From a virus: 40,368 bases of DNA. This document shows positions 87 to 12,246 of this stretch, in pieces. The notes under the pieces were generated by a model. It worked only from the letters and a program-made list of their open reading frames with translations. It had not been told where the DNA came from and ran no database searches. Position 1 is the first letter of the stretch; every line of letters begins with the position of its first letter. The position numbers were made by a program, and so were the translations under genes. The stretch spans positions 1-40,368 of the IMG/VR virus record IMGVR_UViG_3300045988_016556; one strand, written 5' to 3'.

Positions 87-1259
87 CTACCCAAGGGGCA
101 AGGAAGGGGCAAGATTATTCGTGATGATATCATCTAAAATATTGACCGCTTGATCCTTCATGTTCCTTGTGACGTGTGTATAGATGCTAGTGGTAACTTC
201 CGAATCTGCATGCCCAACCCTATCCATGATGGTTTTTAGTGGCACGTTGTTTTCAGCCAGTATGCTAATTGTGGTGTGTCTGAAAATGTGAGGGGATAGA
301 TGCTTGTCGATAGGTGTTTCTAGTCTGGTGTTAGCTCGTTGGAGTGATGCACTTAGGATTGTGCTGTGGATAGGCTTGCCAGTGTTGGTCGTGAAGATTT
401 TATCGCTATGATACCACTCTGGATTGGTCGATTCGCTTAGCTCTTTCAACTCTAGTATCTGGTCAATGATTTCCATTTCACGATTAGTGAGGTAGGTTGT
501 TCGGTAACTAGCGACGGTTTTCGTTCCCTCGTTCTCTGGGATGTATCTGTTGAAAGAGGTGTGGATATCCAAAGAACGTGTCTCCTTGTGGTAGTCTGAA
601 ACAGTCAGGCCAGCTAATTCACCAATCCGGCAACCGTTTAAAAGCATAAACTCACACGCCAGGGCGTATCTCAGTGTTATGTCCTTTCGGTAGAGCTCTT
701 TCAATAAGCGACTGTATTCGTCCGGTTCTAAGTATTTATTCTTGGCAGCTTGCTGTTTCTCAAGTTTATTGGTCTTCTTTGGTAATCGTGCTTTTCGTGA
801 TGGATTGTCAGAAATAAGTTGTTGATCCATAGCGTAGTCGAAGAATGTATTTAATACGGTTTTGGCACGATACTTTTGTGAATCTGTCCAGTCTTCGGTG
901 TCTAGCAAGGATTGGATAAGTCGGACATTGATATTTGATAGGATAGTCCCTTGTTCGATAGTGTCCGATATTCGTTTAACGGATGCTGCAAGGCTCTTGA
1001 TTGAACTTAACTTAATCTGTTTTTGGTGAAACTCCCACCACTCATTGAAGGCACTATGGAACGATACGTTAGTAGTGATGGATGACTCTATCTTCTGGGC
1101 TATCTTATCATCAAGCAAGCGTTGAGCTTCTTTCTTTGCTCGGTTCGAGCCGCTATTGAGCGTAACAGATACCCGTTTCCATTTTTCAGTGTAAGCATCC
1201 TTGTATCTTTCAAAATATTTATATTTTCTATTCGGTAATTGTTCTACCCACATTGTCAT
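87..1259 (-). CDS. int: Tyrosine recombinase (phage integrase)
   Basis: 390 aa. The C-terminal catalytic region carries GCRIGEL, HIFRHT, and GHADSEVTTSIYTHV (R..HxxR..Y signature). The gene is adjacent to the att core. Confidence 0.95.
   Translation of the reverse strand: MTMWVEQLPNRKYKYFERYKDAYTEKWKRVSVTLNSGSNRAKKEAQRLLDDKIAQKIESSITTNVSFHSAFNEWWEFHQKQIKLSSIKSLAASVKRISDTIEQGTILSNINVRLIQSLLDTEDWTDSQKYRAKTVLNTFFDYAMDQQLISDNPSRKARLPKKTNKLEKQQAAKNKYLEPDEYSRLLKELYRKDITLRYALACEFMLLNGCRIGELAGLTVSDYHKETRSLDIHTSFNRYIPENEGTKTVASYRTTYLTNREMEIIDQILELKELSESTNPEWYHSDKIFTTNTGKPIHSTILSASLQRANTRLETPIDKHLSPHIFRHTTISILAENNVPLKTIMDRVGHADSEVTTSIYTHVTRNMKDQAVNILDDIITNNLAPSLPLG
93..112. repeat. Two AAGGGGCAA motifs 11 bp apart, candidate integrase arm-type sites (left arm)
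   Basis: AAGGGGCAA occurs at 93-101 and 104-112. The same 9-mer pair with the same 11-bp spacing recurs at 40194-40213 in the right arm. Confidence 0.4.
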
Positions 1260-1376: not shown

Positions 1377-1769
1377 CTAACTTTGGCGAGGGAGATTATA
1401 GGGCTTTTTTAGTAGTTTCAAATATTCATGTTTTACAAAAGTCTCATCACAAATCGTGGTGAGATTATATTTTTCCATGAAGTGTAAGTAATTGAAGTCG
1501 TCAAGATTTTCATTTTTCAACAACTCATGGATCATAATCCTATTTGCTTGAACCTCATACTTTTCCCGTAGACGCTCATAGTCTTTAGAGTTCTGCTCTA
1601 GGTGGCCCAATTCATGTAAAATGACCTTCAAACGTATTTTTGGGTCTAAATCCTTATTGATATAAACCACCCTGTTTATAGGATCAATAAAGCCGTTTCT
1701 GGGCCACTGGCTAGAGTCGAACTCACAAAGAGACACATTGAACTGCTCAAGCAATTCGTTTTCAGTCAT
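1377..1769 (-). CDS. ImmA/IrrE-family zinc metalloprotease (anti-repressor protease)
   Basis: 130 aa with an HExxH motif (ILHELGHLEQ). It lies immediately downstream of, and co-oriented with, the XRE repressor, which is the ImmR/ImmA arrangement. Confidence 0.8.
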   Translation of the reverse strand: MTENELLEQFNVSLCEFDSSQWPRNGFIDPINRVVYINKDLDPKIRLKVILHELGHLEQNSKDYERLREKYEVQANRIMIHELLKNENLDDFNYLHFMEKYNLTTICDETFVKHEYLKLLKKPYNLPRQS

Positions 1770-1775
1770 AGCACC

Positions 1776-2132
1776 TCACTGTTCCTTACTACTCATGTAG
1801 CCGGCAATTATGCCTCTAATGGCACGCTTATCATCATCAGTAAGCGGTTTGCCATCGAACATCATCGCGTTTTCTATTATGTTATCGATGTCGTGGGAGT
1901 TTTGGTTGTCATTCTGCGAACTTGGCTTAACATTCAAAAACTGTTCTGTTGTCATGCCCAAAGCTTTTGCAAAATCGTCAGCTTTATTCAAAGGAAAAAC
2001 CCTACTTCCCGAAAGATACCTAGATAAAGTCGATTTAGATACCCCAGATTTACTTGCTAATTCAGACATCGACATAGAACTATTGTCTAAATAGCTTTTT
2101 ATTAGCGAAATAATTTCCTCGTTGTTTCTCAT
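1776..2132 (-). CDS. XRE-family (CI-like) phage repressor
   Basis: HTH segment MSMSELASKSGVSKSTLSRYLSG. I moved the start to ATG 2132 (MRNNEEIISL...) rather than the ORF-track start. The gene is divergent from the cro-like gene. Confidence 0.85.
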   Translation of the reverse strand: MRNNEEIISLIKSYLDNSSMSMSELASKSGVSKSTLSRYLSGSRVFPLNKADDFAKALGMTTEQFLNVKPSSQNDNQNSHDIDNIIENAMMFDGKPLTDDDKRAIRGIIAGYMSSKEQ

Positions 2133-2163
2133 ACTCTTTTTCCTTTTATTTAATAGTAAGAAT

Positions 2164-2272
2164 ATTATACAACAGTTCCCGAAAATACACAATACGTTCC
2201 CGAAAATAAACTTTTTTCATATTTTTTTTATTTTAGTGTTGACAAATGGGAACGTGTTAGGTATACTATAAT
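2164..2272. promoter_or_regulatory. Divergent cI/cro switch region: leftward and rightward promoters plus repeated operators
   Basis: The rightward promoter is TTGACA (2239-2244), a 17-nt spacer, then TATACT (2262-2267). The leftward promoter on the minus strand is TTGTGT (2187-2192), a 17-nt spacer, then TATAAT (2164-2169). GTTCCCGAAAATA is repeated at 2175-2187 and 2196-2208 (21-bp period). An inverted GGGAAC half-site at 2248-2253 sits inside the rightward spacer. Confidence 0.7.
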
Positions 2273-2775: not shown

Positions 2776-3058
2776 ACAAATAAACAAATGGCATCGTTAT
2801 TTTTTGATTTGGACTAGTAACCAAAGTGACATCTACTAAGAGAATAGCTTCGAGTGGGTCGTCGCCGTCGAAAGTATGGCCTAAATTTTTACGAAACTCT
2901 AAAAAATTTTTTATACCATCATAACTTTCATCGGGATTATCAGGAAGTAATTTTCCAAAGTATGTTCCAGCCGCTGTCGATATAGCAATATCATAATCAA
3001 TTTCTGTGGCAAAGAATGCTATATCACCAACTAAGTCAAATTTTTTTGTATTAGACAT
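2735..3058 (-). CDS. Hypothetical acidic 107-aa protein, leftward (lysogeny-oriented) accessory gene
   Basis: Start chosen at MSNTKKFDL (ATG 3058), with AGGAG 7 nt upstream. About 16 D/E versus 8 K/R by eye. I recognise no family. It has its own TTGTGT-17-TATAAT promoter. Confidence 0.65.
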   Translation of the reverse strand: MSNTKKFDLVGDIAFFATEIDYDIAISTAAGTYFGKLLPDNPDESYDGIKNFLEFRKNLGHTFDGDDPLEAILLVDVTLVTSPNQKITMPFVYLFIDQIIGVSCGKI

Positions 3059-3140
3059 ATTAATTCTCCTTTCCATAATATTTGACTAGCGATTTTCATA
3101 AGGAGATGAGAGGCCCTATTTAATCGTTTGTCACGAATTG

Positions 3141-3211
3141 ATTATATCAGAAAGGATAGAATAACACAATATATTGTGTTTTCGATACAATCAAAAACTA
3201 TATATTGTGTT
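3141..3211. promoter_or_regulatory. Second divergent control region with a perfect 18-bp palindromic operator
   Basis: AACACAATATATTGTGTT (3163-3180) is a perfect palindrome. An imperfect copy, AAAACTATATATTGTGTT (3194-3211), is centred 31 bp away. The leftward promoter on the minus strand is TTGTGT (3164-3169), a 17-nt spacer, then TATAAT (3141-3146). Its -35 element lies inside the palindrome. Confidence 0.6.
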
Positions 3212-3223
3212 TTGGGATTAAAC

Positions 3224-3412
3224 ATGAAAAAAACTTTAAGCAAGTTACTGATTGACAGAGGAATGACAGTCACAGAGTTAGCTGAAAAGACTGGTATCAG
3301 CTATAACACGTTGATGAACATCGGAAAGAGAGACCTTTCTTTCAGTAGAATGTTGAAGATCGCTGATGCTTTAGATGTCAGTTTAGACGAATTCAGAAAG
3401 GATAATACATGA
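3224..3412 (+). CDS. Small XRE-type HTH DNA-binding protein
   Basis: 62 aa from ATG 3224 (MKKTLSKLLIDRGMTVTELAEKTGISYNTLMNIGKRD). Its stop overlaps the next start (ATGA). Confidence 0.75.
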   Translation: MKKTLSKLLIDRGMTVTELAEKTGISYNTLMNIGKRDLSFSRMLKIADALDVSLDEFRKDNT

Positions 3413-4308
3413 ACGAAATAGCACTATCAAACAACCTTTCTCAAATTGAATTAGAAATAAACCACCACAAGCAAATAGCTGGGCAATCAATTTGGGAAAT
3501 CGGAAGGCGATTAAAATACGTCAAAGAAAACGACTTGACACACGGTCAATTTAGGGAGTGGCACGAAGGTCTAGGGCTTGATAAAGACTTTGCTTATAAG
3601 TCAATGAAAATCGCTGAGGAATTACCAAATGTCGAAACGTTACGACATTTAGGAACAACCGCCTTACACTTAATCGCAACACTTCCAGAGGAAGCAAAGC
3701 AAGAACAAATTGAAAAGATTGAACAAGGTGAATCACCAACGGTCAGAGAGCTGCAAGAGGTGAAAAAAAAGCTCAAACTCAAAGACCAAGCACTGGAAGC
3801 GGTTAAAGGTGAGTTAGAGCGCACTAGACTTGTCAAACCAACTGAAAAGGTGATTGAAAAGGAAGTCATCCCAGACGATTACAAAGCCACGCAAGAGCTA
3901 AACAAACAGCTACTAGGAAAGAACAGAGACCTAGCGGACGAGCTTGATTCGGTCAAGAGAAGTCTAAGGCTCAAAACGGCTTCTTACGAAATGCTCGAAA
4001 AAGAGACATCCGAGGCGGTCGCTCTAAAAGAGTCTATCGAACACTTACGAGCTGATAAAGAGAAATTAGAAAACAGTGTTTCTAACATCTTTACACTCAG
4101 TAACCTAGTGTCAGAGTTTGAAGATTTCTTTGATAGCAAGATGGCACCGCTCAGATTTAAAACCCTTATCCAAGGGATTGGCAAGGATGCTCAGATTGAG
4201 AAATTAAGAGACATCTTAACACTCACAGAAAACTGGATTGATGAAATGAACAAAATCATTCCAGAAAGTGGAAGAACAATCATAGAAGGAGAAATCATCA
4301 ATGAGTAA
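3409..4308 (+). CDS. DUF3102-like early protein with C-terminal coiled coil
   Basis: The N-terminal segment IWEIGRRLKYVKENDLTHGQFREWHEGLGLDKDFAYKSMKIAEE matches my recollection of the DUF3102 signature. The C-terminal half is rich in E/K/L heptads. Confidence 0.65.
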   Translation: MNEIALSNNLSQIELEINHHKQIAGQSIWEIGRRLKYVKENDLTHGQFREWHEGLGLDKDFAYKSMKIAEELPNVETLRHLGTTALHLIATLPEEAKQEQIEKIEQGESPTVRELQEVKKKLKLKDQALEAVKGELERTRLVKPTEKVIEKEVIPDDYKATQELNKQLLGKNRDLADELDSVKRSLRLKTASYEMLEKETSEAVALKESIEHLRADKEKLENSVSNIFTLSNLVSEFEDFFDSKMAPLRFKTLIQGIGKDAQIEKLRDILTLTENWIDEMNKIIPESGRTIIEGEIINE

Positions 4309-4849
4309 GAAGAACAAGAAAAAAGAAAATTTGCTTGCTGAAACAGTCGAAATGCAGAAAAGACAAGCTATGAATCTTGTGGCACAAAGCACCGTTAACC
4401 AACAACTTTTGGAAGAAGTAATCGGAATCAAGGAAGAAATGGACAGAAATGTTAAAAAGACAAATCAAAAACTCACTGACATTGAGTTGCTGGTTGAAGA
4501 AGTTAACAAGAAAGTTCACATCGACGATGGTGAAGCTACTAAAATCAAGAGCCTTGTTTTCAGCAAAGCTGGTGTTTTCGCAGATATGTACTTCAATGAG
4601 CAGAAATCACACCCTAGCGATAATCTGTTCGCTTCGAAGAAAGGTCAGTTTATTCGCTTGATGTACTCACGCTTGAAGAAAGCCTTTAACGTGACCAAGT
4701 ACACTAATATCAAGCACGTTGAAGCTGAGAAAGCAGTGCAATTCCTAAGAGATTTATCTTACGACGACTTCACGCCGTTTGAAATTCGTGAGACACCAAA
4801 ACAAAAAGAACTTATCGCTCTTGAAAACGGATTGAAAGAAATCGGGTGA
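4301..4849 (+). CDS. ORF6C-domain-like early protein (antirepressor-associated C-terminal domain)
   Basis: 182 aa. The segment GEATKIKSLVFSKAG...FIRLMYSRLKKAFNVTKYTNIKHVEAEKAVQFL resembles the ORF6C pattern. The family call is from memory. Confidence 0.5.
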   Translation: MSKKNKKKENLLAETVEMQKRQAMNLVAQSTVNQQLLEEVIGIKEEMDRNVKKTNQKLTDIELLVEEVNKKVHIDDGEATKIKSLVFSKAGVFADMYFNEQKSHPSDNLFASKKGQFIRLMYSRLKKAFNVTKYTNIKHVEAEKAVQFLRDLSYDDFTPFEIRETPKQKELIALENGLKEIG

Positions 4850-5094
4850 CGCTTATGGAAATCACCTATAAACCAGTCGGTATCAACGAGACGGCTGAGT
4901 GGGGAGACTACGACCACCTCATGCAGAGGTGGGAAGGCCTTGGGAAGTCGATGGCAAAAAACCTCATTCGAGAAATGAGGGATAACAAAGACTTTCGAGG
5001 GTACGTATTCAACCCGACGCACAAACTGGTTTTCATCAACTATGAAGGGTTTAAGTCCTTCATCGAGTGGAAAACTAGAAACAGGTTCAAATAG
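4846..5094 (+). CDS. Hypothetical early protein (possible small DNA-binding or excisionase-like protein, weak)
   Basis: 82-aa ORF with a GTG start overlapping the previous stop. An alternative ATG lies at 4855. There is no secure family assignment. Confidence 0.5.
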   Translation: MTLMEITYKPVGINETAEWGDYDHLMQRWEGLGKSMAKNLIREMRDNKDFRGYVFNPTHKLVFINYEGFKSFIEWKTRNRFK

Positions 5095-5325
5095 CACAAC
5101 ACCCTGGCCGCAGAAGTGAGCTAGTGAGGAGATATAAGCAATACCAACCAAAAAACTACAACGATTTGATATTCATAATTGTCTCCTTAAATATATAAAT
5201 CTATGAAAAAAATCCTCACTAGTTCTCTAGTGCGGTTAGGGAATAAAAAAGGCCAACCACTGCCAGAAAGGAGCATAACCGAATGAAGTATATCTTTCAC
5301 TAATACGGAAGAAAATTACACGAAA

Positions 5326-5652
5326 ATGAATAACAAGTTCTTACAAGATACTAGCTTGAGCTTACAAGCGAAAGGCTTACTTGCTGAAATCTTGATAAAT
5401 AAAAGCGATTGGCGAGTTTATCTGTCAGAACTTGAAAAGAGGTCAACCAACGGGAAAAGCTCACATCGTACAGCGTTTGAAGAATTGAAACGCAAACGGT
5501 ATGTTGTGGTATTTCGTAAAAGCAAGGGCTATAAAAAAGGTTTTGAAATGGTTGTCTGTGCATCAGACATACCCATGACGGACGAATTTATAGAATACCT
5601 TGACAAAAAGTTATCCACAGAGTTATCCACAGGTAGCCTAGAAAATTCATAG
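5326..5652 (+). CDS. Winged-helix (HTH_36 / replication-initiator N-terminal-like) protein, short form
   Basis: 108 aa. The segment LSLQAKGLLAEILINKSDWRVYLSELEKRS...AFEELKRKRYVV resembles the N-terminal DNA-binding domain of phage and plasmid replication organisers. No DnaD-like C-terminal domain follows it. It lies directly upstream of the iterons. Confidence 0.5.
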   Translation: MNNKFLQDTSLSLQAKGLLAEILINKSDWRVYLSELEKRSTNGKSSHRTAFEELKRKRYVVVFRKSKGYKKGFEMVVCASDIPMTDEFIEYLDKKLSTELSTGSLENS

Positions 5653-5885
5653 TTCGATAATTGGAATTTCCATTTAATCAAACGATGATAATTCGTAAGT
5701 TATAAAATTCATACTACGAAAAAATCAAACGATGATAATTCATAGGTTAGAAAATCGGACACTAACAATAACTAATATATAAACAATAACTAATATATAA
5801 CAATATGGTGCTACGCACACTAACCGACAACAATCTAGAGCCTACCGGCACTAACCAGCAATAATAACTAATAGATAACTATACA
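5642..5885. repeat. Iteron-rich AT-rich region, candidate phage origin of replication
   Basis: The 19-mer AATCAAACGATGATAATTC occurs at 5676-5694 and 5723-5741. The tandem 18-mer AACAATAACTAATATATA occurs at 5764-5781 and 5782-5799, with a degenerate third copy near 5860-5884. CACTAAC appears three times (about 5760, 5817 and 5849). AATTCRTA appears four times. The region has no ORF. Confidence 0.55.
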
Positions 5886-5922
5886 GTAATCATAGTTAGA
5901 AGAATAAGAGAGGTAAAAAATC

Positions 5923-6066
5923 ATGAAAAAACTATTTAACTGGATTTGGTCTAAGAAACAAAATGAAGTAGAAGTCTATGAAGTTCCACAATGGGAATCT
6001 TACACAGCTAAAACTGAGCGATTCAACGCTGACCACGGATTGCCGTTAGATCAATTAGTGGGGTAA
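5923..6066 (+). CDS. Small hypothetical protein (47 aa)
   Basis: ATG at 5923 with GAGAGG 9 nt upstream. The product reads MKKLFNWIWSKKQNEVEVYEVPQWESY.... It falls below the ORF-track cutoff. Confidence 0.4.
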   Translation: MKKLFNWIWSKKQNEVEVYEVPQWESYTAKTERFNADHGLPLDQLVG

Positions 6067-6069
6067 CTC

Positions 6070-6189
6070 ATGAAACTACTAAAGAAATTGCTAACCAGAA
6101 AGAAACCCAAACAGCAAGAGCCGTTCTTTGAATGGGTTGAAACCCCAGAGGAAAAGCAAGAACGACTCAAGAACAAGTACACAAAATAA
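6070..6189 (+). CDS. Small hypothetical protein (39 aa, basic)
   Basis: ATG at 6070, 3 nt after the previous stop. The product reads MKLLKKLLTRKKPKQQEPFFEWVETPEEKQERLKNKYTK. The SD is weak. Confidence 0.3.
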   Translation: MKLLKKLLTRKKPKQQEPFFEWVETPEEKQERLKNKYTK

Positions 6190-6400
6190 CATCAACTTTT
6201 CAACGTGCAGCCATGGCCTCGTCGTGGAGTGCATCTTATACCCATAATTTTTCCCCAAAAAATTAACACTTTACTACCCACACAAAAATCTTTCTAAAAA
6301 ACATATTTACAAAGCGGCGAGGTTGTGGGTGCACGTTGAATGCACTAAAAAAGCATGGGTTAGGGCCCATGCAAGAAAAATACACCAAGGAGATTATACC

Positions 6401-8377
6401 ATGAAATCTTTTAACACTCAAACAGTCGCAAAAACTGGATTCACTAAAAGCAAAGCATTTGGATTGTGTGGCACACTTGCCATTGCTACAGCTTTATTGA
6501 TTGGGTCTGGCACAGTATCAGCAGACGAAACCACTCAACCAGTGGCGGACACACAACCAGCGGTAGCTAACATATACACGGCAGATAATGCCGGCAACGT
6601 TACGGTGACACCGTCTGAAACAGTGGCACCAGTAGAAACACCAGCGCCGGTTGAAGCGCAACCTATTGCGGAAACTCCAGCAACAGTCGAAACTACTCCA
6701 GCGGTTGCTACAGAAGCAGCACCAGTGGTAGAAACTCCAGCAACAACTACAGAAGTAGCTCAACCAGTAGCTGAAACGCCTAAACAGCCTACTGAATTTG
6801 TCAAAGAAGACAACGAAATTAAAGTAACTAATCCAGATGTTGTCGTTGACCAATCAAACGGAACTGGTAAATACAGTGGTTTTACAGTGGAATATAAAGA
6901 CGTTAAATTCCCAGATAGCATGCCTATCAACGAAGGGGATAAGGTAACATTCAACCTTCCAAAAGAAATCAACTTCCAAACAAACTATGATTTTGATGTC
7001 TATAACCCAGAAAAAGCTGTTGTTGGTAAGGCTTCAACTGACCCTAAGACACAAACAGTAACAACTGTATTTAACGATTACTTCAAGAACCATCCACTCA
7101 ATAAACAAATGTCATTGAAGCTCGATGCTAAGTGGACTGACAAGGTTGAAAGTGGCAAGCCAGTTAACGTTAATTTCAATGGTACAGTGGTTACTGTAAA
7201 TATTGGAAAAGAGCAAGAAATCGGTAAAGATGAATTGCTTTCTAAATGGGGTAGTCAAGACGAGAATGACCCAACTGTTATCAACTGGACTGCTCGTGTG
7301 AATTACGCTAAGAGAGTGCTCAACTATGTGACTATCATTGATGAAATGTCAGAGAATCAAAAGTTAGTTGATAACTACTTTGAAATTAAAAACATTGAAA
7401 GTGTTGATCCGTGGATTGACAAAGGCTCAGCTATGGACTTAGTTAAGTCTATCAGTAAGTCAGATCGTGGCTTTACTATCAAGATGGATCGCTTGGATCA
7501 CATGATCTACATCAACTATAAGACTAAGCTTGTTAACGCTGTCAAGGACTCAGTTAACCCAACGAACAAAATTGAGTTGAAAGCAGAAACAGATGGAGCT
7601 ACTTCGTATAGCTATGTGCAACTCGTAGGAGGAAAGGGTGATGCGAGCGGTGAAAATAAACCAGAACCTACATTTGAGATTCCTCGTGAAGCTCCAAAAG
7701 TTGACATTCCTGAATTTAACGGCGGCATCCCTGGTATTCCTGAAGAACGTGTGAAACCAGAATATACTGAGCCAATCGGAACTGTTCCGAATGATGCACC
7801 AGTGCTAGACAAACCAGAATGGAACGGTGGAACAGTACCGTTTGACGCCCCACAATATGATAAGCCTGAATGGAATGGTGGGGTAGTGCCAAACGATGCG
7901 CCAGTGTATGATAAACCATCAATCGACATTAACGACATCCCTTTGATGCCACCAGCTCCAGTCGTAGAAATTCCAGAATGGAATGGCGGAACTACTCCAT
8001 TCGATGCACCTAGCATTGATAAGCCAGAATGGTCTGGAGGTGTCGTACCATTTGATGCACCAGTTTTGGACTTGCCAGAGCTTGAAATTCCAGAGGAACC
8101 AACTAAACCAACACCAGAAAAACCTAGCACGCCAGAAAAAGCCCCTAAAACGAGCGTAGAGCGTCCTAATGACAAAGTGGCACAATCTACCACAGTGTCT
8201 TACAAGCTCGATTCTGAGCCAAAAGAGGTGGTAAATACGACAGTTTACGGCGGTGTTCTCCCTAACACTGGTGAAAAAGAGGGCATCATGTCAACTCTTG
8301 GGCTTGTGGTTATCGCTGCAGGCATCACAACTTTGGGATTGAGCTTCAAGAAGTACAACGAAGGTGAGGAAGAATAA
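6401..8377 (+). CDS. YSIRK-type signal / LPXTG cell-wall-anchored surface adhesin with a Cna-like (collagen-binding MSCRAMM-like) A region and proline-rich repeats
   Basis: Start at ATG 6401 with AAGGAG at 6387-6392. The signal peptide is MKSFNTQTVAKTGFTKSKAFGLCGTLAIATALLIGSGTVSADE. The A-region segments VTTVFNDYFKNH...LKLDAKW and VINWTARVNYAKRVLNYVTIIDEMSENQKL resemble Cna/Ace-type adhesins. LPNTGE (8258-8275) is followed by a hydrophobic segment and a KKYNEGEEE tail. Confidence 0.85.
   Translation: MKSFNTQTVAKTGFTKSKAFGLCGTLAIATALLIGSGTVSADETTQPVADTQPAVANIYTADNAGNVTVTPSETVAPVETPAPVEAQPIAETPATVETTPAVATEAAPVVETPATTTEVAQPVAETPKQPTEFVKEDNEIKVTNPDVVVDQSNGTGKYSGFTVEYKDVKFPDSMPINEGDKVTFNLPKEINFQTNYDFDVYNPEKAVVGKASTDPKTQTVTTVFNDYFKNHPLNKQMSLKLDAKWTDKVESGKPVNVNFNGTVVTVNIGKEQEIGKDELLSKWGSQDENDPTVINWTARVNYAKRVLNYVTIIDEMSENQKLVDNYFEIKNIESVDPWIDKGSAMDLVKSISKSDRGFTIKMDRLDHMIYINYKTKLVNAVKDSVNPTNKIELKAETDGATSYSYVQLVGGKGDASGENKPEPTFEIPREAPKVDIPEFNGGIPGIPEERVKPEYTEPIGTVPNDAPVLDKPEWNGGTVPFDAPQYDKPEWNGGVVPNDAPVYDKPSIDINDIPLMPPAPVVEIPEWNGGTTPFDAPSIDKPEWSGGVVPFDAPVLDLPELEIPEEPTKPTPEKPSTPEKAPKTSVERPNDKVAQSTTVSYKLDSEPKEVVNTTVYGGVLPNTGEKEGIMSTLGLVVIAAGITTLGLSFKKYNEGEEE
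7706..8071 (+). repeat. About 17-aa proline-rich repeats KPEWNGG(V/T)VP(F/N)DAPxxD within the adhesin
   Basis: There are four clean copies (KPEWNGGTVPFDAPQYD, KPEWNGGVVPNDAPVYD, IPEWNGGTTPFDAPSID, KPEWSGGVVPFDAPVLD) and two degenerate copies, read from the translation. Confidence 0.8.
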
Positions 8378-8379
8378 TC

Positions 8380-8700
8380 ATGAAACTAACAGAAACACAA
8401 GTCGTATTTTACAATGCTGAAAAAGATGGATTTCTTGAAAAATACAAAGACAGAGGCACCCTAGCATTTGAAGCAGGTTATACTACCGAATTAAGACGTG
8501 CACTAGTCCTGCCGTTCTGCCCGTATGAAAAACAAAAAGACGAGTTCGACAAACTTGCTGATACATTTGGCTGCGAAGTGCTTAATGTGGAAGTTGAATA
8601 CAACGTAACTAAACTTGACGGTTCGGACTTTGAACGCCCAGAGCGTGAAGGATCCTTGAAGAATGGAATCGAAGCGCTTATGGAATTATTGACTAATTAA
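8380..8700 (+). CDS. Hypothetical early protein (106 aa)
   Basis: The ORF starts 2 nt after the adhesin stop. I recognise no family. Confidence 0.6.
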   Translation: MKLTETQVVFYNAEKDGFLEKYKDRGTLAFEAGYTTELRRALVLPFCPYEKQKDEFDKLADTFGCEVLNVEVEYNVTKLDGSDFERPEREGSLKNGIEALMELLTN

Positions 8701-8738
8701 CAAATTAAGCAGTGGTGGGAGGGTAGGCATTAAACGAC

Positions 8739-8921
8739 ATGGAGCAAGAAATTTACAACGTCGAAAACCGTTGGCGGAACAAGTACATGAATTTAGGTCG
8801 CGAGTTGGGCGAGATTATCAACAGCCAACAAGACAGAATCTTGTCGCTATCTCAAGAAAACAACAAGCTCAAACGGGAGAATTGGAACCTAAAAAAGTCA
8901 AAAGGCAGGAAACGGCTTTAA
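8739..8921 (+). CDS. Hypothetical small coiled-coil protein (60 aa)
   Basis: Open frame with charged heptad-like content. The SD is distant, and a competing overlapping frame exists at 8771-8968. Confidence 0.35.
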   Translation: MEQEIYNVENRWRNKYMNLGRELGEIINSQQDRILSLSQENNKLKRENWNLKKSKGRKRL

Positions 8922-9026
8922 AATCGCTTGTAACCGTCTTAAATAATCTAGTGGCACAATTACACTAGAGAAACGGCAAATAACCCCCAAAATTTGAGAA
9001 TTAGGGGCATTTAAAAAGGATATGAC

Positions 9027-9719
9027 ATGGAAAATATGACATTCACAGAGTTGCAGCAAAAAATGCAACTTGAAAAAAAGAAAGAGGGTACAGCTAAGTA
9101 CGCTTCAAGGCACGTCGAGGACATTTACAACTTCTTTAAAAGTTTGAAATCAAATTGGAGCGTTGTCGTCAACTATGATCTAGTCGAATTTTCTGGCAAG
9201 ACTTTTGTCAAAGCTACTGCAACGGCGTCTAACCGAGAGGAAAAAGAGCAAGCAGTAGCTTTCGCAGAATTGTCTCCGGTACCTATTTTGAAAACTCGTA
9301 ACGGTGATTTAAAACAAATGAACGAGCCGCAATGGGTGGGAGCCGTGCAATCATACGCCGGCAAGTACGCCGTGCAAGCGCTGTTTGCAATCGGTGAGGA
9401 AGATGTGGACCATTTTGAAGTGGCGGAGGAAAGTTTGAGGCCAAACCAACCTCACAACTCCAATCAAAACCAGCACCCGCAACAAGTACGCTACGAGTCA
9501 AGAATCGACCAACAACCTAACTTCATCAGCAATGAGCAACATGACACAATCATGCAACTAATCAATGAATTGGCTCTAATTACTGGGCAATCAGTTGAAA
9601 CAGTAGCTAATTACTATTTGAAGAAGTACAAACTCAACGATTTCCATGAGGTACTAGTGCCAGGATTCGACGTGGTAACTAACGACATTCAAGGGCAAAT
9701 CTACCAACGAAAGGGATAG
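9027..9719 (+). CDS. ERF-family single-strand annealing protein
   Basis: 230 aa. The segment QWVGAVQSYAGKYAVQALFAIGEEDVD resembles the conserved ERF core. The gene lies upstream of the DUF1351-like gene and SSB, as in many streptococcal phages. Confidence 0.6.
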   Translation: MENMTFTELQQKMQLEKKKEGTAKYASRHVEDIYNFFKSLKSNWSVVVNYDLVEFSGKTFVKATATASNREEKEQAVAFAELSPVPILKTRNGDLKQMNEPQWVGAVQSYAGKYAVQALFAIGEEDVDHFEVAEESLRPNQPHNSNQNQHPQQVRYESRIDQQPNFISNEQHDTIMQLINELALITGQSVETVANYYLKKYKLNDFHEVLVPGFDVVTNDIQGQIYQRKG

Positions 9720-9722
9720 AAC

Positions 9723-10694
9723 ATGAAGGACGTAACAAATAATTTTTTAGAAACAATCGAACCAATCTATACGCCGGGGACAATTAATTTTGATTTTGAC
9801 AAATTCGATGCAGCTATCCAAGCGGCAGTTAGCGAGCTATCAGATGAACAACTGGACAAACTTGAATATAACGATGTCTTAAAAGAAATCACACGCTTCA
9901 AAGGGCTTGGCGACAAACTTGACGATAAGCGTAAGGAAATCGGAAAAATCTACAAAGACCCACTCACTGAGTTTGAATCTAAACTAGCGACTTCACTAGA
10001 GCCATTGAATGCACTTCTTGACAAACTACGTGCTAAACGTGATGAAGTCAAAGAACACAAAAAAACGCTACGAATTGACCACGTTAGATCAGTTTTTGAA
10101 AGCAAATGCGAGCTAGCCGGACTAGATAAGGACACATTCAAGGACAAGTACGAGAGCTTTTCTAAAGTCGGGGATTTCATGGATAAGAAAATGAAGCTCA
10201 AAAAAGCGACTGAGGAAAAGATTGACGCCCTTGTTTTAGCTGAATATGACCAACTTGAGGAATACAAGGCCAACGTTGCCATGATTGAGGAACAAGCCCT
10301 TGACTATGAATTACCAGCGGAGCCATACACTAGAGCATTGCAGAACGGCACACCTCTAGTTGAAGTCTTGCAACAAATGAAAAAAGACCGAGATGCAGCT
10401 ATTGAACGCAAGCAACAAGCGGAAGCTAAACAAAAAGCAGAAGCGGCACGCCTAGCAGAAATTGAAGCATTGGCCCAGCAGTCAGCGAACGAGGAAATCA
10501 AGGCGGTAAATGCTGAAACTGGTGAAGTTATCGAAGACACTAAACCAGTCGAGGAAGTGCCTAGCAAACCCGCTGAACCTTACAAGGTCAATCTTGTTCT
10601 TACGTTCCACGGTGGAGAAAACCAATGGCATCAATTCGCTAAGCTGTTGGATGACAACTTTGTAAATTATGAAATTCTAGGAGAAAATCAATGA
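9723..10694 (+). CDS. DUF1351-like recombination-module protein (coiled coil)
   Basis: 323 aa, E/K/A-rich. Its position between ERF and SSB is typical for DUF1351 proteins. The family call is from memory. Confidence 0.5.
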
Positions 10695-11212
10695 TCAATT
10701 CGACCGTACTCGTTGGGCGCTTAACTCGTGACCCAGAACTAAAATACACGACCAGCAATATTGCAGTAGCTACATTTAGCCTAGCGGTTAACCGTAACTT
10801 CAAGGACGCTAACGGCGAACGTGAAACAGACTTTATCAACTGCGTTATCTGGCGTCAGCAAGCTGAAAATTTGGCGAATTGGGCTAAAAAGGGAGCGTTG
10901 ATTGGAATCACTGGACGCATCCAGACCCGTAGCTACGAGAATCAGCAAGGTCAACGCGTCTATGTGACTGAGGTTGTCGCTGAGAACTTCCAAATGTTGG
11001 AAAGCCGTGCAGCGCGTGAAGGGAGTAGCGCAAGTCAAGGCAACAATTTCCAAAACGGGAACGGTCAAGGTGGATACAACCAACAGCCAAGCAATCAAGG
11101 CTACCAGCAACAACCGAACTTTGGGCGCAACGACCAAGTGCAGTCGCACGCTGCGAATACTACATGGCAAGGCGATCCGCTAGATATCGATGAAGACAGC
11201 CTTCCGTTCTAG
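10691..11212 (+). CDS. ssb: Single-stranded DNA-binding protein
   Basis: OB-fold N-terminus [20 protein letters not shown]...[12 protein letters not shown], a G/Q/N-rich linker, and an acidic tail DIDEDSLPF. Confidence 0.95.
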
Positions 11213-11226
11213 GAAAGAGGTGGCGC

Positions 11227-11775
11227 ATGGGGTTTAAACCAATTAAAGGGTACGAGGGTATCTATGAAGCGTGTTCCGATGGCACAATTTGGTCGAGTGA
11301 AGGCAAAGTGACTTATAGTAATTGGCACGGAAAGATTAGGAAGCGCGTCTGGAAGCGTAGAGAAATCAAGCCGCAGATACAAAAGCGAGTAAGAAGCGCA
11401 CACAGCGACAAGCGGGTGAAGTTATGGAAAAACGGCGTGGTAAAAACACATCTTGTAAGTAGACTAATAGCCACTGCATTTATTCCCAACCCAGAAAATA
11501 AAGGTTTTGTTAACCACAAAAACGGAAACCCGCTAGACAACTCAGTTAAAAACCTTGAGTGGGTGACTAGGGCGGAAAATCAATTACACGCTTTTAAAAC
11601 GGGGTTAATGAGCACAAACAAAAAAGTTACCTTGAAAGACCTATCAAATGGTGCAGAGTACCGCTTTAACAGCTTGGCAGATGCCAGTCGTTTTCTCGGT
11701 ATGAATCATGGTTTTCTAAGTAACAGACTGAAAAGAGGTAAGGGAGTGGATGGATATGAAGTGGAATTGGTCTAA
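11227..11775 (+). CDS. HNH homing endonuclease (NUMOD4-like N-terminus + HNH_3)
   Basis: Motifs FKPIKGYEGIYEACSDGTIWS and VNHKNGNPLDNSVKNLEWVTRAENQLHA. The gene is inserted between ssb and rusA. Confidence 0.85.
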   Translation: MGFKPIKGYEGIYEACSDGTIWSSEGKVTYSNWHGKIRKRVWKRREIKPQIQKRVRSAHSDKRVKLWKNGVVKTHLVSRLIATAFIPNPENKGFVNHKNGNPLDNSVKNLEWVTRAENQLHAFKTGLMSTNKKVTLKDLSNGAEYRFNSLADASRFLGMNHGFLSNRLKRGKGVDGYEVELV

Positions 11776-11784
11776 GGTGAAGCT

Positions 11785-12246
11785 ATGAAAATGATTTTAA
11801 ACATCGAACCTAAACCACAAACAAGGCCACGATTTAGCAAGTTTGGAACTTATGAAGACCCCAAAATGAAAGCGTGGCGTCGTCAGTGCTCGCAACTTAT
11901 CGAGCAAGAATACGACGGACAATTCTTTGACGGACCGATTATGGTTGATGTCACTTTCTACATGAAAGCCCCGCTGAACGTATCAAAAAAGCCTACGCCA
12001 AAGGCTAGAGCTAAAACGTGGGACAGATTCAAGAAATTCACAGCTGAAAGACTTTGGCATGCTAAAAAACCCGACGTTGACAATCTGGTAAAAGCGCTCT
12101 TTGATAGCATTTCAAACGCTGGATACAACAAAGTGGATAAAAAAGGGATTGTTTGGACGGATGACAGTATTGTTTGTGGTTTAATAGCTCGCAAGAAGTA
12201 CAGTCCTAACCCACGCATTGAATTAGAAATCAAGGAGCTCGGATGA
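11785..12246 (+). CDS. rusA: RusA-family Holliday junction resolvase
   Basis: 153 aa. N-terminal PKPQTRPRF and the conserved KPDVDNLVKALFDSI motif. Confidence 0.85.
   Translation: MKMILNIEPKPQTRPRFSKFGTYEDPKMKAWRRQCSQLIEQEYDGQFFDGPIMVDVTFYMKAPLNVSKKPTPKARAKTWDRFKKFTAERLWHAKKPDVDNLVKALFDSISNAGYNKVDKKGIVWTDDSIVCGLIARKKYSPNPRIELEIKELG

Follow-up and report, generated by a model that had tools for sequence, protein, structure and literature searches.

The adhesin-like gene and its product

The DNA analysed here, IMG/VR record IMGVR_UViG_3300045988_016556 over its full 40,368 nucleotides (nt; "the window"), is a complete temperate siphovirus prophage of 40.4 kb from the phage group of Streptococcus salivarius and Streptococcus thermophilus. 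We focus on a gene of its early region. Its product, referred to below as the adhesin, is probably an MSCRAMM-type adhesin that sortase anchors at the cell surface; temperate siphophages of the S. salivarius group carry the gene as an optional cassette, which is probably expressed with their early operon. The open reading frame (ORF) is intact and leads from an ATG at 6401 on the plus strand through 658 amino acids (aa) to a TAA at 8375-8377. As the initial annotation of the window had stated for both the frame and its end, only 2 nt lie between this stop codon and the next early gene, which encodes a 106-aa protein and starts with an ATG at 8380. The gene is composed of the following parts.

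6387-6403, plus strand: Shine-Dalgarno sequence AAGGAG (6387-6392), spacer ATTATACC and start codon ATG (6401-6403); this junction sequence is common to adhesin-less phages
6401-8377, plus strand: adhesin gene, an ORF of 658 aa
6401-6526, plus strand: signal peptide, residues 1-42, with an FTKSKAFGLCG motif, a hydrophobic core and a VSA/DE cleavage site (TIGR03726, 17.7 bits)
6527-6805, plus strand: low-complexity spacer rich in T, V, A, P and E, residues 43-135, recognised by composition and without confident AlphaFold structure (ratio of nonsynonymous to synonymous substitution rates, dN/dS, 0.25)
6806-7660, plus strand: A region, residues 136-420, two IgG-like MSCRAMM subdomains (Big_8, Collagen_bind; dN/dS 0.07-0.10)
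7709-8074, plus strand: stalk region of SIALI-17 repeats, residues 437-558, including about 19 inserted aa (NF043031, 76 bits)
8075-8257, plus strand: Pro/Lys/Glu-rich segment, residues 559-619, presumed to span the wall; the least conserved region (mean pairwise identity 0.63)
8258-8377, plus strand: sorting signal read from the sequence, with LPNTG (residues 620-624), a hydrophobic segment, a KKYNEGEEE tail and the stop codon

The assignment is carried by the A region. Pfam places Big_8 at residues 168-248 (E 9.7e-13) and Collagen_bind at residues 278-383 (E 7.3e-12), both exceeding their gathering scores, while Cna_B has no match in the adhesin at E <= 1. A phmmer search with the whole adhesin gave no matches in the PDB, and a profile from an alignment was needed: that of 40 diverse relatives recovered Cna (2f68, E 8.5e-14), Cnm (8jl8), SdrE, SdrG, RspB, Bbp and ClfB. 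Structure prediction with AlphaFold from the single sequence was not usable (predicted local distance difference test, pLDDT, 33.6); modelled with the 40-sequence alignment (AF2), the A region folds into an all-beta, two-domain structure with a pLDDT of 94.7 and a predicted template-modelling score (pTM) of 0.86. Foldseek matched this model to Bbp (3e-18), SdrE, SdrG, ClfA, ClfB, Cna (query TM-score, TMq, 0.72), Cnm, RspB and Ace, with TMq values of 0.58-0.72 to Cna, Cnm, ClfA, SdrG and Bbp, and the model superposes on the folds of Cna, Cnm, SdrG, ClfA and Bbp. The likeness to collagen-binding MSCRAMMs, initially proposed from motifs, is thus borne out by hidden Markov models (HMMs), by the profile search of the PDB and by the fold search.

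Individual positions fit the same picture. K282, D314 and N389 occupy near-invariant columns in the alignment of 40 relatives and form a candidate isopeptide triad in the second subdomain: K282 and D314 fall exactly on K176 and D209 of Cna, and N389 lies within one residue of N293, the three Cna residues being those that make its intramolecular isopeptide bond. In the profile alignment, VTTVFNDYF (residues 219-227), a candidate for the TYTFTDYVD-like motif of MSCRAMMs, is paired with the ITFNDKV segment of Cna; the TFNDxxxK motif aligns too, and the Gly-rich residues 411-418 (GKGDASGE) form a confident terminal strand in the model, placed like the latch of MSCRAMMs. We regard the MSCRAMM fold of the A region as established by profiles and model and its mechanism as probable, with collagen as a candidate ligand. 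Among 1.84 billion representatives, just 304 relatives of the A region were found at E <= 0.001, most of the full-length ones terminating in LPxTG. A viral structure library held a single good match, a metagenomic siphovirus "clumping factor"; among known viral proteins, the MSCRAMM fold is rare.

The adhesin shares with Cna (Staphylococcus aureus) and Cnm (Streptococcus mutans) a layout that runs from a signal peptide over an IgG-like A region with two subdomains and a stalk to an LPXTG anchor, and Cna provides both the best TM-score (0.72, 2f68) and the best profile match (8.5e-14). It differs from the two proteins in being phage-borne, in sharing only about 16% identity with them and in having collagen as a candidate ligand only. 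It also lacks Cna_B repeats, its stalk consisting of SIALI-17 repeats and a Pro-rich segment, and it has a long low-complexity spacer before the A region. SdrG, ClfA, Bbp and SdrE give the best Foldseek E-values (3e-18 to 1e-16) and have in common with the adhesin the two-domain architecture and the latch-like Gly-rich C-terminal strand; at 12-15% identity, the adhesin differs from them in the absence of an SD-repeat region.

The flanking parts of the protein are those of a secreted, wall-attached polypeptide. The signal peptide reads MKSFNTQTVAKTGFTKSKAFGLCGTLAIATALLIGSGTVSA/DE, and relatives follow the N-terminal consensus K-[PT]-[SG]-[YF]-[VT]-K-[TS]-K-A-[FY]-G-L-C-G-T-L-A...VSA/DE. It had initially been called YSIRK-type, which holds only approximately. 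The YSIRK_signal models (PF04650 / TIGR01168) gave no match at E <= 1, nor at E <= 10 for six N-termini. TIGR03726 (strep_RK_lipo), which describes a YSIRK-related streptococcal cross-wall-targeting signal with a cut-off of 20.85 bits, scored 17.7 bits for the window copy and 14.0, 19.3, 20.6 and 21.9 bits for four of five other N-termini, the fifth having no match. Judged by these scores, the peptide appears to be YSIRK-related without being canonical YSIRK, the family resemblance being clear and the window copy lying under the cut-off. As described at the outset, the spacer that follows is dominated by T, V, A, P and E, which make up 83 of the 108 residues at positions 43-150.

The stalk contains four clean 17-aa units, KPEW[NS]GGxxPxDAPxxD, starting at residues 472, 489, 525 and 542, and two degenerate units at about residues 437-471. 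This agrees with the initial count; the accompanying statement that the unit fits no known repeat family does not stand, since NCBIfam identifies it as NF043031, SIALI-17 repeat-containing surface protein (76 bits, E 1.2e-21, cut-off 30, 5 stretches). An S. salivarius protein with 88% identity bears this name at NCBI as well. Tandem Repeats Finder detected no DNA tandem repeats in the gene, the conservation being at the protein level only, and a literature search on SIALI-17 found no paper. The homologs in phages Javan534/535/539 (Javan535: MK448799.1 4744-6465) are annotated as "sialidase". There is no sialidase domain in the family, and neither a sialidase nor a BNR domain is among the Pfam and NCBIfam matches of the adhesin; the label is a misnomer whose source is probably the SIALI-17 repeat.

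At the C-terminus, the predicted LPNTG sorting signal is present in the layout of an LPXTG sortase substrate, with the motif, a hydrophobic stretch and a charged KK...EEE tail, and scores just below the cut-offs of the respective HMMs (Gram_pos_anchor 15.6 bits, cut-off 20; TIGR01167 15.0 bits, cut-off 15.9). Because a Sec signal is combined with LPXTG, the adhesin is expected to be anchored in the wall rather than assembled into virions. No PHROGs family matches it, and the proposal that it is neither a virion nor a replication protein is upheld.

Distribution and variation of the cassette

At least 243 IMG/VR contigs encode a relative of the adhesin, and a protein homology search returned thousands of matches, many of them on contigs of about 40 kb. 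The gene is preceded by a structured leader, described below, which we sampled as 117 leaders from IMG/VR; 124 and 72 distinct leaders were used in separate analyses. In 99 of the 117, the adhesin is the next gene, and all 78 of these 99 adhesin-like ORFs that are not cut off by a contig end are intact. The remaining leaders are followed directly by the 106-aa gene, which is a widespread streptococcal phage early gene, by a replisome organizer or by a Gp157-like gene. Where the leader runs straight into the 106-aa gene (L114, L181), the arrangement is an exact empty site, and comparison with related prophages thereby identifies the adhesin gene as a discrete insertion.

The same slot, behind the same leader, holds homologs in Javan534/535/539, Javan536, SA-TP2 and YMC-2011, which are 50-66% identical and represent orthologs or alleles. 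Their database names vary ("sialidase", "hypothetical", "LPXTG ... collagen binding"), that of YMC-2011 being Ssal_phage00024, annotated "LPXTG ... collagen binding domain protein"; the window allele is the longest. Together with the 99 of 117 leaders, these phages contradict the early impression of an unusual location: in this phage group, it is common. The cassette adjoins at least four different replication modules. In the prophages Javan311 (S. mitis) and Javan371 (S. parasanguinis), versions with 70-77% identity occupy other places of the early region. In species-representative genomes, searched with a single A region as the query, 19 loci with a close A region were found in S. salivarius, several S. 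parasanguinis lineages, S. gingivalis and others, 17 of them with phage-like flanks. S. thermophilus phages with the same leader lack the adhesin.

Variation among 76 distinct alleles concerns length (543-658 aa) and repeat number (0-5 PEWNGG-type units), the window allele having the greatest length and the most units (5). The LPxTG motif is kept in 75 of them. With dN/dS at 0.07-0.10, the A region is under purifying selection; values in the spacer and stalk are 0.22-0.26. By these sequence comparisons, the adhesin gene is a phage-associated and apparently functional cassette that is present or absent at a fixed junction between the leader and the replication module.

Several observations accompany this survey. 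In the S. vestibularis phage SVep1, a 191-aa cytoplasmic beta-solenoid (YdcK-repeat) protein takes the place of the adhesin (L092:2696-3271), and the slot behind the leader hence accepts different cargo. The SVep1 paper and an S. salivarius lysin preprint do not mention the adhesin gene. MW057932.1, deposited as "Campylobacter phage CJLB-5", matches the present streptococcal prophage at the DNA level and encodes a 40%-identical A region with repeats; misassignment or contamination of this record is probable. Another related prophage with the adhesin has a gene for an AcrIIA6-family anti-CRISPR protein (L006:6063-6614) between its lysis module and integrase.

The leader RNA and the early operon

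The initial annotation had considered transcription of the adhesin both with lytic early genes and from a structured leader of its own. The structure is there. The 210 nt 5' of the ATG fold with a minimum free energy z-score of -5.3 against shuffles, and the following elements can be distinguished.

6199-6340, plus strand: long-range leader helix, with a 5' arm at about 6199-6231, a 3' arm at about 6310-6340 and an A/T-rich loop of about 80-90 nt (inverted repeat I1, 6199-6224 / 6315-6340)
6353-6372, plus strand: conserved GC-rich hairpin GCATGGG-TTAGGG-CCCATGC with flanking A-runs (2 of 7 pairs covary)
6393-6421, minus strand: promoter-like site TTGAGT-17-TATAAT with an extended TG (TGgTATAAT), 10 of 12 matches, over the Shine-Dalgarno-ATG spacer

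In an RNAalifold analysis of the 72 distinct leaders, the whole structure comprises 32 pairs, of which 12 show compensatory double changes. The long-range helix accounts for 25 pairs (10 with compensatory changes), and the covarying pairs of the GC hairpin alternate between UA and CG (41/31) and between GC and AU (46/26). Overall, 99.1% of alignment cells are paired, compared with 23-46% when partners are slid by 1-3 columns, and the observed covariation was reached by none of 500 shuffles. The ribosome-binding site 3' of the GC hairpin is unpaired in the fold. Over the 32 pairs, there are 346 G.U combinations on the plus strand against 18 A.C, which indicates that the structure is that of the plus-strand RNA; the same counts led us to reject a DNA cruciform or an origin as readings of the inverted repeat. 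Rfam gave chance-level matches only for positions 5600-6500.

What did not stand is that the leader belongs to the adhesin. The same leader, with further compensatory differences, lies 5' of the replisome-organizer gene in the adhesin-less S. thermophilus phage 20617, virulent phages of S. thermophilus, P7954 among them, have it too, and it is common to phages of S. salivarius, S. vestibularis and S. thermophilus whichever gene comes next. It is therefore an element of the early-operon junction. A link between the leader and the 106-aa gene in other streptococcal phages was also considered and was not seen in the three that were checked (S. pneumoniae IPP37, S. pyogenes Javan491, S. gallolyticus Javan235), where this gene lies within a tightly packed replication module. 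We conclude that streptococcal phages of dairy and oral origin have, at a junction of modules, an RNA motif that is well supported and so far without annotation. In one locus (L012:3953-3972), the 20-nt hairpin is replaced by its exact reverse complement, with the stem kept and the loop flipped, as expected if only the stem matters.

How might such a leader act? RNase III sites and antisense RNAs are found in phage early operons, as exemplified by the R sites of T7, SP82 early RNA, lambda oop and P22 sar. The leader resembles these in placing an imperfect helix of about 25 bp in a polycistronic early transcript, possibly with a short convergent transcript; it differs in that it has no Rfam match and that cleavage and antisense transcription are suggested by likeness only. 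By this analogy, the long helix may be an RNase III-type processing site and the GC hairpin a 5' stabiliser. Read on the minus strand, the GC hairpin is a canonical intrinsic terminator, a hairpin followed by T6, 21 nt from the minus-strand promoter-like site, and in 117 of 124 distinct leaders the hairpin and T-run are preceded, at a distance of 18-24 nt, by an extended -10. Site and terminator (6421-6347) could conceivably yield an antisense RNA of about 40 nt beside the ribosome-binding site. Alternatively, the minus-strand arrangement could be a by-product of conservation at a recombination junction.

Signals that would set the adhesin apart from its neighbours in transcription were not encountered on the plus strand. 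The best promoter-like sites of that strand, at 2239-2267 (11 of 12 matches) and 3052-3079, lie at the genetic switch, and the consensus scan found none in 5000-6400; a sigma-A promoter in the leader loop was considered and dropped, no convincing conserved -35/-10 being apparent by eye or by scan. Plus-strand terminator-like sites with more than 5 stem pairs are absent from about 2900-11600, where only a weak 5-pair site (4560-4572) was found, and the scan detected no terminator 3' of the adhesin gene. Genes that follow cro promoters are part of the earliest transcription programme in phages of S. thermophilus (PMC13575424). Since neither a consensus promoter nor a terminator of its own was found, the adhesin gene is most likely co-transcribed in the rightward early operon. 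This appears to be the most economical reading of the sequence, and it weakens the initial notion of lysogenic-conversion cargo, while the proposed embedding in the early rightward operon fits both the 2-nt gap to the next gene and the lack of a strong intervening terminator. The surrounding genes, named where possible by PHROGs matches, are arranged as follows.

87-1259, minus strand: integrase (PHROGs)
1377-1769, minus strand: ImmA-like metalloprotease (PHROGs)
1776-2192, minus strand: repressor (PHROGs)
3128-3412, plus strand: cro-like regulator (PHROGs)
4301-4849, plus strand: antirepressor (PHROGs)
4846-5094, plus strand: excisionase (PHROGs)
5326-5652, plus strand: 108-aa ORF like the N-terminal part of replication-initiator / DNA-binding proteins (phrog_1456, 4707, 428)
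5651-5883, plus strand: iteron-like direct repeats (families D1-D4), putative origin region, 3' of the 108-aa ORF
5923-6066, plus strand: small early ORF, 47 aa (phrog_1022)
6070-6189, plus strand: small early ORF, 39 aa (ORF list)
8380-8700, plus strand: 106-aa early gene (phrog_2486)
9027-9719, plus strand: Erf (PHROGs)
9723-10694, plus strand: phrog_674 protein (PHROGs), with PF07083 (DUF1351) in an identical metagenome locus
10691-11212, plus strand: SSB (PHROGs)
11227-11775, plus strand: HNH endonuclease (PHROGs)
11785-12246, plus strand: RusA (PHROGs)

Packaging, head, tail and lysis genes follow 3' of RusA. The adhesin gene is accordingly found where it had been placed, between the putative origin (iterons at 5651-5883) and the module of Erf (9027-9719) and SSB (10691-11212). 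Every related phage examined has small ORFs ahead of the leader (Javan535/536, SA-TP2, YMC-2011 and, as e7, 20617). The nearest deposited phages are S. salivarius Javan534/535/539, which align with 46% of the first 25 kb at 86% identity. An identical adhesin protein is encoded on a 100-kb human metagenome contig, in which the prophage adjoins an enolase gene; S. thermophilus phage 20617 occupies the same site, beside the enolase gene. The Erf/SSB module of the prophage showed no gene for a full-length initiator, a helicase or a primase. The HNH endonuclease gene (11227-11775, plus strand) separates SSB from RusA; phage 20617 has these two side by side, which gives the HNH gene the appearance of a homing-type insertion.

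Proposed expression and function of the adhesin

We envision a scenario, its protein steps drawn from the anatomy of the polypeptide, in which the pre-protein would be exported by Sec via the YSIRK-related streptococcal signal peptide and the host housekeeping sortase would cut LPNT/G and join the protein to peptidoglycan. The Pro-rich segment and the variable number of SIALI-17 repeats would then form a wall-spanning stalk, and the two IgG-like subdomains would capture a peptide or protein ligand by a "collagen hug" or "dock, lock and latch" movement, collagen being only a candidate. As the first gene behind the leader in a long rightward early operon, the adhesin would not be a constitutive moron but would be transcribed mainly when a cell is infected or induced, which includes those cells of a lysogenic culture that undergo spontaneous induction. 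Its benefit might be that host populations, infected or lysogenic, adhere or aggregate differently on surfaces of the mouth and gut.

Several points weigh against this early-operon adhesin. Identity of the A region to solved MSCRAMM structures is only 12-17%, so that ligand and mechanism are assigned by analogy; the HMMs for the sorting signal remain slightly under threshold, and the acidic end of the C-terminal tail is atypical. The promoter scans searched for consensus sites only, whereas promoters of the extended -10 kind are known from these phages; the leader may contain a promoter that is weak or unconventional. Moreover, there is no evident advantage in a wall-anchored adhesin whose synthesis is confined to a brief lytic cycle, which argues for some expression in the lysogen.

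Such expression is central to the strongest rival, a classical lysogenic-conversion moron, which we consider possible and clearly less probable than the early-operon adhesin. Here, an unrecognised promoter or read-through would allow expression in the lysogen, the host would gain extra adhesion to host matrix, pellicle or partner bacteria, and selection would act via host fitness. The present/absent nature of the cassette and the purifying selection on its ligand-binding region agree with this, as does its distribution, the gene being missing in dairy S. thermophilus phages and common in mucosal phages of S. salivarius, S. parasanguinis and S. mitis. There are also precedents. SasX of S. aureus is a prophage-borne LPXTG protein, and SasX and SesI of staphylococcal SPbeta-like prophages are sortase-anchored surface proteins that have been proposed or shown to promote colonisation. 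The same has been proposed or shown for a prophage-encoded, sortase-anchored LPXTG protein of phiD12-like prophages in group B Streptococcus (PMC6546898). The folds and sequences of these proteins are unrelated to the adhesin, and their genes have not been described at the head of an early replication operon. Several features speak against a moron: the gene sits in a rightward operon normally silenced by the repressor, no consensus promoter was found from the small ORFs to the ATG and no terminator 3' of the gene, and the leader upstream is common to virulent and adhesin-less phages.

Less likely still, in our estimate, is an adhesin of the early lytic or infection phase, as opposed to lysogeny, that redecorates the wall of the newly infected or induced cell. 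It could tether this cell to tissue or to susceptible streptococci nearby, in which case progeny would be released where hosts are dense, or it could shield receptors. Its synthesis would be gated by the leader RNA through the possible RNase III helix and the possible convergent antisense RNA of about 40 nt.

A role in competition between phages seems improbable. An early surface protein might mask or bind the wall receptor or incoming tails and thus mediate superinfection exclusion, or guard progeny against adsorption to debris, in the manner of T5 Llp or S. thermophilus Ltp. The early-operon position and the high diversity of alleles would suit such a role, and this prophage has no Ltp-type gene between integrase and repressor, where phage 20617 has one; a gene in the Ltp position is, however, also present in some adhesin-carrying relatives. 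Furthermore, the known partners of the MSCRAMM fold are peptides and proteins of the host rather than phage parts or wall glycans, the adhesin has no PADLOC match and no likeness to Ltp, and its dN/dS is low and not diversifying. A sialidase, a virion component or decaying, non-functional cargo is hardly credible, given that the "sialidase" name in the Javan535 record most likely stems from the shared SIALI-17 repeat and is not backed by a sialidase/BNR domain in Pfam or NCBIfam, that a Sec signal with LPXTG denotes wall anchoring and no PHROG is matched, and that the ORFs are intact and under purifying selection.

Prophage-borne LPXTG proteins are known as a kind, and the adhesin gene is annotated in GenBank phage records. 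Undescribed so far are its prevalence and cassette nature, the MSCRAMM fold, the first-gene position behind a shared leader and the leader RNA itself, the last being a more novel by-product than the adhesin. The unusual position of the gene, directly behind the conserved leader of the early operon and without a moron-type promoter, raises the question of when and why a phage would display an adhesin. In humans, few bacteria colonise the mouth and small intestine as abundantly as S. salivarius, and in most of the temperate phages sampled from this group, an MSCRAMM-type adhesin is present, intact and maintained by selection. Should it alter attachment, aggregation or biofilm formation, then phage carriage would be a mobile niche determinant across S. 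salivarius, S. parasanguinis and S. mitis.

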